NCBI GenBank assembly: GCA_964016885.1
Contig: OZ024747.1
Coordinates: 40,052,001 to 40,116,000 of the forward strand
DNA: 64,000 nt
Reading direction: 5' to 3'
Origin: Eledone cirrhosa
Lineage: Eukaryota
This document shows, piece after piece, positions 46,132 to 47,829 of the stretch (within the stretch, counting starts at the first letter, position 1; each line of letters starts with the position of its first letter). Under the pieces are notes generated by a model. The model had not been told where the DNA came from. It saw only the letters and a program-made list of their open reading frames with translations, and did not search any database. The position numbers were made by a program, and so were the translations under genes.

Positions 46132-46270
46132 CACAACAAATTAGCGCACCATATCCGAGGACGTGCGTTTCACCGAACGGATTTCCAAACCGTGTATGGC
46201 AGCCATACACGGGCTCAAAATCTGTCCGCTGTAATGCGCGTCCTCGAGTCTGGTGCACTAATTTGTTGTG
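46132..46270. repeat. Gap-free 139-bp palindrome (69-bp arms, 55/69 identical) made of two decayed hammerheads (family F)
   Basis: Centre 46201; the two arms combine to cggg-CT(G)AAAA-tccg tt cggt-GAAA-cgcgcg-TC-ctcg. Confidence 0.75.
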
Positions 46271-46518
46271 CTCTCTCTCTCTCTCTCTCTCTCTCTCTCT
46301 CTCTATATATATATATATATATATATATATATATATATATATATATATATATATATATATACATATATATATATATACAACCAAAGATTAATGCGGTTCA
46401 TTGATTACTCAATGAATATAGTTTTACAATAGATTAAAAGCACTCTACAAGAAAGTGTTCTGGAGTTATTAATATTATTCAGAATATTAATAAATGAAGA
46501 CAGTCACATAATCAAAAT

Positions 46519-46588
46519 ATGTTTTATTATATATATTTCGAAGGTACTGCGTTGTTTTTTCAGTACGTTCTCGTCAGATAAAATACAT
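46519..46588 (-). ncRNA. Intact minimal type I hammerhead ribozyme (family B)
   Basis: tattttat-CTGACGA-gaa c gtactg [loop] cagtac c ttc-GAAA-tatata-TA-ataaaac. Confidence 0.85.
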
Positions 46589-46751
46589 GAATTGATGTAT
46601 GACATACCTCAACGGTCTTGATAGTTCAATTCCAGACTGCCAATACTGGAATTGAACTATCAAGACCGTTGAGGTATGTCATACATCAATTCATGTATTT
46701 TATCTGACGAGGACGTACTGAAAAAACAACACAGTACCTTCGAAATATATA

Positions 46752-46920
46752 TAATTGTTTCTACTTTAGGCACAAGGCCAACAATTACCCAGTGCATTAC
46801 TGGTACTTTATTTTATCGACCCCGTAAGGATGAAAGGCAAAGTCAACCTCGGCGAGATTTGAACTCAGATCGTAAAGGGACGTAACTATGCTGGAAAGCA
46901 TGGCGTCCGACCCTCTATCG
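46752..46920 (-). mobile_element. Family 1 SINE inserted at the hammerhead cleavage site, 16-bp TSD
   Basis: TSD tcgaaatatatataat at 46740-46755 and 46918-46933. Confidence 0.9.
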
Positions 46921-47829
46921 AAATATATATAATAAAACATATATTTTGATTATGTGACTGTCTTCATTTATTAATATTCTGAATAATATTAATAACTCCA
47001 GAAAAGTTTCTTGTAGAGTGCTTTTAATCTATTGTAAAACTATATTCATTGAGTAATCAATGAACCGCATTAATCTTTGGTTGTATATATATATATATGT
47101 ATATATAGAGAGAAAGAGAGAGAGCGAGCACAACAAATTAGTTATTTATTAATATTCTGAATAATATATATATATATATATATATATATATACAAATAGC
47201 TTATCGCTCTACATGGCTGAATACAATAAATGTATAATAATAATGAATAATAATAATAATATTCGATTCGTTTGCAATTATGCAAACAGCCTCTTTAAAG
47301 CTATGTACGTATATATATATATATATATATATATATATATATATATATATATATATATATATATATATATATATATACATATATATATATATATATGTGT
47401 GTATGTATGTTTGTATATATATATATGTGTGTGTGTGTGTGAATGTGTGTGTGTGTGTGTGTGTGTGTGTGTGTGTGTGTGTGTGTGTGTGTGTGTGTGT
47501 GTGTGTGTGTGTGTGTGTGTGTGTGTGTGTGTGTGTGAATGTATATATAGGCATTTATGACAATATAATGAGAAATCCGTTCAGGGTATTTAGAATTGTT
47601 GATTGAATTAGCGGCAATTTAGTCGTAATAGTGACTGCGAATGAAATGTCTTTCTAATTAAATGGTCACTTGAAATGTTCCCATACATAAAAGCGAGTAG
47701 AAATGTGACAATTTTAACTCATTCTCTTTAATTTACATGCAATTCTGTTTAATTTCCATTGCCTTCGATTGACGTATATTCTTAAAAATACAGAAAAGAA
47801 ATGTATGCCAATCACTAGTATAATAGAGT

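Follow-up and report, generated by a model that had tools for sequence, protein, structure and literature searches.

Inverted copy of a target flank at a pseudo-LTR insertion of a Hydra-clade Penelope-like element

How can DNA that borders an insertion on its left come to stand, inverted, on its right? This question is raised by a locus in the window analysed here, a stretch of 64,000 nucleotides (G000:C7:40052001-40116000) of a microsatellite-rich genome of 3.0 Gb, presumably cephalopod to judge by its SINE. The locus is a short, head-to-head, solo inverted pseudo-LTR (pLTR) insertion of a Penelope-like element (PLE) of the Hydra clade. The copied flank is real and specific for this locus, and it was probably formed close to the time of insertion. 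Its origin is best explained, with a probability of roughly 45%, by a second cDNA that was aborted during integration and re-primed on the opposite target end.

Anatomy of the locus and identity of the element

The features of the locus are given below. The numbering B1-B256 of the element family (family B) corresponds to window 46380-46635, i.e., to the left arm, which is antisense on the plus strand.

46107..46271, no strand: family A, an older dispersed repeat with an imperfect palindrome core (46132-46270, 79% self-inverted)
46272..46379, plus: target microsatellite (TC)16(TA)29CA(TA)7CA
46380..46471, minus: tail of the left (long) arm, 92 nt, B1-92; longer copies run on into the ORF
46466-46493, left arm: 11-bp hairpin (B87-114)
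46472..46635, minus: left pLTR arm, B93-256, stopping 10 nt before an Inr-like site
46636..46645, plus (sense): central 10 nt, part of the right arm; identical junction in L016 and L076
46646..46755, plus: right arm, B256-147, with a minimal putative hammerhead motif (core 46704-46745)
46756..46917, plus: SINE-like insert, later than the element, at (TA)4 of the putative hammerhead; the window contains many copies of it
46918..47081, plus: right arm, B162-1, full tail included
47082..47127, plus: left microsatellite, copied in inverted form; both TA interruptions retained
47128..47142, plus: inverted copy of the unique left flank 46257-46271
47143..47167, plus: one extra base, then B116-93, the canonical short end of the family
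47164..47192, plus: (TA)14 primer tract, then the true right flank
L050 2574-3035: GIY-YIG-like endonuclease frame of a longer copy, downstream of the RT frames and upstream of family B

The right arm as a whole comprises 46646-46755 plus 46934-47081 and is split by the SINE-like insert, which is bordered by a 16-nt target duplication (46740-46755 and 46918-46933). The (TA)4 of hammerhead helix III is a repeated insertion site for SINE-like and (ATC)n-ended repeats (46756-46917; L054, L033). Between an ordinary centre and an ordinary short end, the focal locus possesses one extra piece, which leads from B116 to B1 and on through the microsatellite and 15 nt of flank. The centre is of the ordinary type of L016 and L076, its 10 nt lie in the right arm, and they presumably represent the RNA 5' end. 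B1 would be the start of the first reverse transcription and B116-93 at 47144-47167 the 24-nt stub of a second cDNA. The copied flank consists of the last 15 nt (46257-46271) of family A, for which a single relative was found, at L104. This repeat is palindromic but asymmetric, its left arm being the longer one; it abuts microsatellites and is possibly an older inverted pLTR from another family. Elsewhere in the window, a solo tail fragment (B77-1) lies at 44404-44482 with (TA)n tracts on both sides, and an 18-bp minisatellite with 94 copies and 93% matches occupies 22668-24361.

Family B is the pLTR plus 92-nt tail of a Hydra-clade PLE. Its longer copies pass B1 into RT frames containing QMDIASYY, ITMGSS and GGLYRDD, which matched RVT_1 with an E value of 0.0029, under the curated cut-off. 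At the opposite end of these copies, a GIY-YIG-like frame is followed by a 3' untranslated region and then by family B. The endonuclease frame of L050 gave an Atlas score of 0.95 to a cluster in which 35% of the members carry PF01541, a Pfam search with it returned no match and a homologue search yielded no scored relative. The layout is that of EN+ PLEs: an RT ORF follows the 5' pLTR and tail, a C-terminal GIY-YIG domain precedes the 3' pLTR, pLTRs stand at both ends, and there are an inverted pLTR, a one-sided tail and at least 359 palindrome centres. The assignment to the Hydra clade is based on motifs read by eye and judged against section 11 of Craig et al. 2021 (PMC8557442), namely a CxCX5C linker, DKT, RW followed by R or L (not K), the absence of CCHH and a (TA)n target. 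In that paper, Hydra-clade C-terminal EN+ elements are described with these same features, including the lack of a two-cysteine CCHH, and share with family B a CxxC before the catalytic E, an inverted pLTR and a tail at one end; they also carry a hammerhead in the pLTR, where family B has a putative one. The tail of family B is 92 nt long, compared to the 30-40 bp given there as typical of PLEs. An assignment to Neptune is rejected on linker and cysteine evidence: Neptune and Nematis elements have a CX2-5CxxC linker and two cysteines between GIY and YIG, whereas family B has CxCX5C and one cysteine between VY and YIG.

The putative hammerhead of the pLTR is of the minimal type described in PMC4209133 and was recognized by eye from its core motif, helix II (also computed) and a palindromic helix III; an Rfam search returned hairpin look-alikes only, all under gathering scores, and no hammerhead match. 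The Inr-like site lies 10 nt past B256 and is likely to mark the 5' end of the RNA.

Locus specificity and age of the mirrored flank

It had been claimed in the initial annotation that the palindrome does not stop at the 3' end of the element but continues into a mirror of the left flank. This was borne out, as the tail ends at 47081 and is followed by (TA)n, (GA)n and 17 exact bases. Past B1, the right side reads TG(TA)7TG(TA)4, an interrupted (GA)n and then GCACAACAAATTAGT, while the reverse complement of the left flank is TG(TA)7TG(TA)29(GA)16GCACAACAAATTAGT. Comparison of the two places both (TA)n interruptions in register, and the exact match outside simple sequence amounts to 17 nt (47126-47142). 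The partner of 47128-47142 is indeed the left flank, but its position is 46257-46271, one base to the left of the 46258-46272 originally given. The outer segment had further been regarded as locus-specific and not as part of the family consensus, and this view holds. The mirrored 15-mer occurs nine times in the 3 Gb genome, twice at the focal locus, and in a genome-wide count none of the seven other copies had family B beside it. Moreover, the real continuation of the family beyond B1, found at 16 places, is a different sequence.

The two arms differ by four substitutions and one AT indel, the microsatellites are unequal in length, and the SINE-like insert is present in one arm only. A fold-back artefact of a sequencing read is therefore unlikely. 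Short-read contigs and RAD reads (three runs from one sample, each containing at least half of the sampled words, and two RAD runs) left 47092-47177 without depth and gave no records on 47112-47166, an absence that may be false. By region, the arms show two differences in B1-116 and two plus the indel in B117-256. Since they differ no less in the part belonging to the extra piece than in the remainder, the copy was probably made near the time of insertion. At 138 aligned sites, the arms differ twice, compared to a family median of 3.0% (43 pairs), so the flank copy is of about the same age as the insertion, within coarse limits. Three rare variants are common to both focal arms and each of them occurs at one other locus genome-wide. 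With two such shared variants in 219 sites versus a family rate of 21 in 7100, there is no clear excess.

Ordinary and aberrant copies of the family

In an ordinary copy of family B, a long arm that begins at B1 is followed by the centre and by a short arm with its end at B93, and (TA)n stands on both sides. Two fixed ends, B1 and B93, abut the target repeats. Genome-wide, 1993 B93 starts after (TA)n were counted. The first 50 of 359 exact centres comprised 37 long+short and no long+long palindromes; L070 and L071, which represent one duplicated locus, are among the 37. Here the Inr-like site was reached by the short arm alone in 13 cases, by the long arm alone in 11, by both in one and by neither in 12. 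An unselected sample of 80 consecutive B93 starts on contig 1, from which loci already examined had been left out, contained 38 starts with a long arm within 1.2 kb and 42 without. Of the latter, 13 ran on into the body of the element and the others were solo short arms, 15 of them complete and 14 truncated, and in 7 of the 38 pairs the long and the short arm did not overlap at all. As the tail cannot be copied from a short arm, and sequence absent from a long arm cannot have come from it, the simplest reading is that of two RNA-templated strands, with the short arms acting as independent cDNAs. This agrees with the extension of both strands and the two start sites observed in vitro (PMC11167929). 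On the other hand, later flipping or deletion of the centre could imitate part of the arm asymmetry. A pair with arms of different subfamilies would prove two RNA molecules, but no clear case was found among 43 pairs, and discordant arm clusters turned out to be largely alignment artefacts. Both arms belong to the same subfamily and hence come from one source, a fact that does not separate the models.

These data bear on the mechanism originally proposed, in which a nick-primed cDNA folded back and copied itself and the attached target strand. Template switching, probably near insertion, is retained from it; the notion of one cDNA without a second RNA template is not. It conflicts with the Inr-like site being reached by the short arm alone about as often as by the long arm alone, with the short ends that lack a long arm or run into the body, and with the non-overlapping pairs. 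At the focal locus itself, the 10-nt centre (46636-46645) reads sense and belongs to the mirrored arm instead of the presumed primary arm, as it does in L163, and the locus terminates in the canonical short end, the 24 nt at 47144-47167 that had been overlooked. Nor is a mirrored flank a general footprint of family B palindromes, since it was present in none of the 38 unselected ones.

The most common junctions in the centre set carry an extra C straight after the putative RNA 5' end, which could be due to copying of the cap; in this class the short arm is usually complete (about 13 of 16, hand count). In L176 (G000:C6:91544171), the 5' end of a complete short arm adjoins sequence located 134 nt past the tail. 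This suggests that synthesis, having reached the RNA 5' end, switched to a site within the RNA.

Further mirrored loci were searched for with four gap-limited exact patterns, which gave 5, 14, 33 and 10 overlapping matches and favoured short stubs. Since the pattern motifs recognize 30 of the 46 long arms and 31 of the 41 short ones, these counts are lower bounds. One clear case emerged, L114, in which a stub (B1-123) is followed by 26 nt of the opposite flank and then by the short arm, with 2-nt microhomology. L163 (stub B137-93, 2-nt microhomology) is a probable case only, its flank being a common repeat end. In L001 and L163, the more complete arm is the mirrored one. The centre belongs to the true-flank arm in L114 and L110 and to the mirrored arm in L163, as at the focal locus. 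Among 88 loci examined, 75 with two arms were screened for mirroring, including L114 and L163, which had been added deliberately, and eight of the 75 had an inverted match. L010, L016, L047 and L093 were rejected as mirrors, their matches being out of register, insert-derived or element sequence, and an ambiguous 14-nt near-microsatellite match at L073 was left out of the count. The focal locus is thereby the only clear mirror among the 73 two-arm loci not chosen for mirroring, and flank mirroring is probably rare, well under a few percent. Two-tailed palindromes (three loci by pattern, plus L020) did not mirror unique flank in any case.

Other copies begin with a short stub and continue differently. 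In L034 and L061 the stub is followed by a direct copy of the locus' own flank (with 9 nt microhomology in L061), in L110, L151 and L134 by tail sequence (in L134 with no long arm within 9.4 kb), in L160, L162, L165 and L171 by ORF-start sequence past the tail, and in L137 and L153 by (TA)n and a restart. Stub-length arms are not common in general, as only 4 of the 80 unselected B93 arms extend no farther than B140. A hotspot of stub ends at B114-137, hinted at by the targeted matches, was absent from the unselected sample. Short doubled fold-back centres exist in L014 and L114, and L095 (G000:C3:34218193-34218380) is a perfect tail-to-tail palindrome, [B93-117][B63-1](TA)13[B1-63][B117-93], that likely arose by fold-back at a microsatellite. 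At L115 (G000:C7:73681167-73681282), a 20-nt unit corresponding to about B93-112 occurs five times in a row at the short start, and the arm goes on after it; this resembles telomerase-type repeat addition.

Origin of the mirrored flank

The reading preferred here assumes two cDNAs. Both strands of the (TA)n tract would be nicked, whereupon priming would take place at B1, the tail end, for the top strand and at B93, the pLTR end, for the bottom strand. After about 24 nt, the bottom cDNA would halt and switch to the left target end, the homology at the jump being 1 nt or none. There it would copy 15 nt of flank and the microsatellite up to the nick, return to the RNA at B1 and proceed to the RNA 5' end. 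Finally, the two cDNA 3' ends would be joined at the Inr-like centre as in ordinary copies. Strand order and timing may have been as outlined, and the flank may have been copied by the RT of the element or by a host repair polymerase. Re-priming is ranked first because one process, an aborted cDNA that re-primes on a nearby template, covers all sister events. The extra junction base (47143) is an A on the bottom strand; for the R2 RT, mostly A was described among non-templated additions, together with template jumps with 1-2 nt overlap (PMC8857657). The focal locus would be a rare by-product that points to two priming events over one fold-back.

Several observations temper this reading. In each of the three mirrored and the two direct cases, the arm that follows the flank copy starts again in the register of that flank. 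Such a match is automatic on a DNA template, and re-priming therefore needs an extra assumption. The centres of L114 and L110, lying in the true-flank arm, fit a fold-back as well. The stubs, rare in the unselected sample, were collected with patterns that favour them. Ordinary tandem duplication could account for L034 and L061, a full-length copy that later suffered a deletion for L160, L162 and L165, and later loss of the centre for the non-overlapping arms. The extra junction base could be a C-to-T change, the flank of L163 is a common repeat end, and the junction received no support from the short-read contigs and RAD reads.

The rival that survives best, a real possibility not far behind, also begins with two cDNAs. 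A normal long+short element like L016 would form first. The outward top strand on the short arm would then stall near the B87-114 hairpin, fold onto the left arm, copy through the tail into the flank and rejoin at B116, either by gap filling at integration (about two thirds of the weight) or during later replication. Removal of 46988-47143 in fact restores the commonest layout of the family with the L016 centre. A fold-back of this kind accounts for the matching register better than re-priming does and allows any orientation of the centre. Its return points (B116, 123 and 137) lie just inside the hairpin, and fold-back centres as well as the perfect palindrome L095 exist in the family. The rare variants common to both arms, each found at one other locus, would suit it too, but their excess is not clear, and the low divergence of the arms gives no hint of a much later copy. 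L134, L034 and L061 are beyond its reach, so that a second process is required anyway.

An origin from a single cDNA appears improbable. Such a cDNA, primed in the left (TA)n, would turn back on reaching the RNA 5' end, use itself and the attached target strand as template and finally be linked by end joining to a short piece on the right. This model would yield the mirrored flank without further steps, a hairpin of 3 bp with a 3-nt loop is possible in the centre, and L114 and L110 are consistent with it. Self-priming has also been proposed for rotifer Penelopes (PMC3846280), and fold-back inverted duplications are reported at L1 ends (10.1101/2024.12.14.628481). However, the orientation of the centre is wrong at the focal locus and L163 unless it was flipped or deleted later, an RNA-templated B93 stub is still required, and the arm statistics preclude this route as a general source of inverted pLTRs. 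A family consensus tail, a chance juxtaposition or an assembly error is very hard to maintain: the lack of coverage at the junction in short-read contigs and RAD reads and the abundance of simple repeats would permit it, but the 15-mer does not adjoin family B elsewhere, the true post-tail sequence differs, the arms have diverged with an insert in one, and the layout recurs at other loci.

A broader scheme, conceivable yet rather unlikely, is that twin priming is an obligatory step in the integration of PLEs. Each strand would have its own fixed RNA start site, the two cDNAs would be joined at the RNA 5' end, and short abortive cDNAs of the telomerase-related RT would re-prime on either target end or on RNA, sometimes repeating a 20-nt unit as in L115. 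If true, mirrored flanks would be frozen intermediates, with both target ends and the RNA in one complex.

Inverted pLTRs, tails, (TA)n targeting and internal start sites are already known for PLEs, and inverted duplications beside L1 insertions are known as well (10.1101/2024.12.14.628481). The origin of inverted pLTRs and of the one-sided tail was described as undefined in PMC8557442, and the available text of that paper on Hydra-clade elements makes no mention of a captured flank as present at the focal locus. In the open literature, covered mostly through titles and the beginnings of abstracts, no description of opposite-flank capture or twin priming in PLEs was found. Closest in vitro is Poseidon of Anolis (PAc; Frangieh et al. 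2024, PMC11167929), whose protein nicks and extends both strands of an AT-rich target and uses two internal RT starts that bound the tail, with a stem-loop at the start site. PAc belongs to another clade, however, and its starts are adjacent and 111-118 nt into the ORF, whereas those of family B lie upstream of the ORF, at a distance of 92 nt from each other. The in vitro work ends at initiation and leaves second-strand synthesis and joining unresolved. The Penelopes of Adineta vaga (Arkhipova et al. 2013, PMC3846280) resemble family B by head-to-head pLTRs, a palindromic junction, an Inr-like TCACT and an optional tail. Their inverted pLTRs were attributed to self-priming on an antisense template, while the family B data favour two target-primed cDNAs. 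With L1 twin priming and flank inverted duplication (10.1101/2024.12.14.628481), the focal locus shares a short inverted local copy and 1-2 nt microhomology. Unlike L1, in which the target end folds on itself, the opposite end was copied here, the copy has a cDNA stub on one side and a full arm on the other, and a fixed site is used for second priming.

With about 2000 short ends, hundreds of junctions and rare aberrant products, family B is a resource sufficient to tell twin priming from self-priming by sequence alone. The focal locus is a rare accident, and the family-wide arm asymmetry is the more useful result. L143-L150 (G000:C17:33869460-33870972) form a tandem array of at least nine deleted family B units with (TA)n between them, and L003/L004 and L070/L071 are near-identical insertions with common flanks, 0.3-0.75 Mb apart, which are either local duplications or haplotype duplicates of the assembly.
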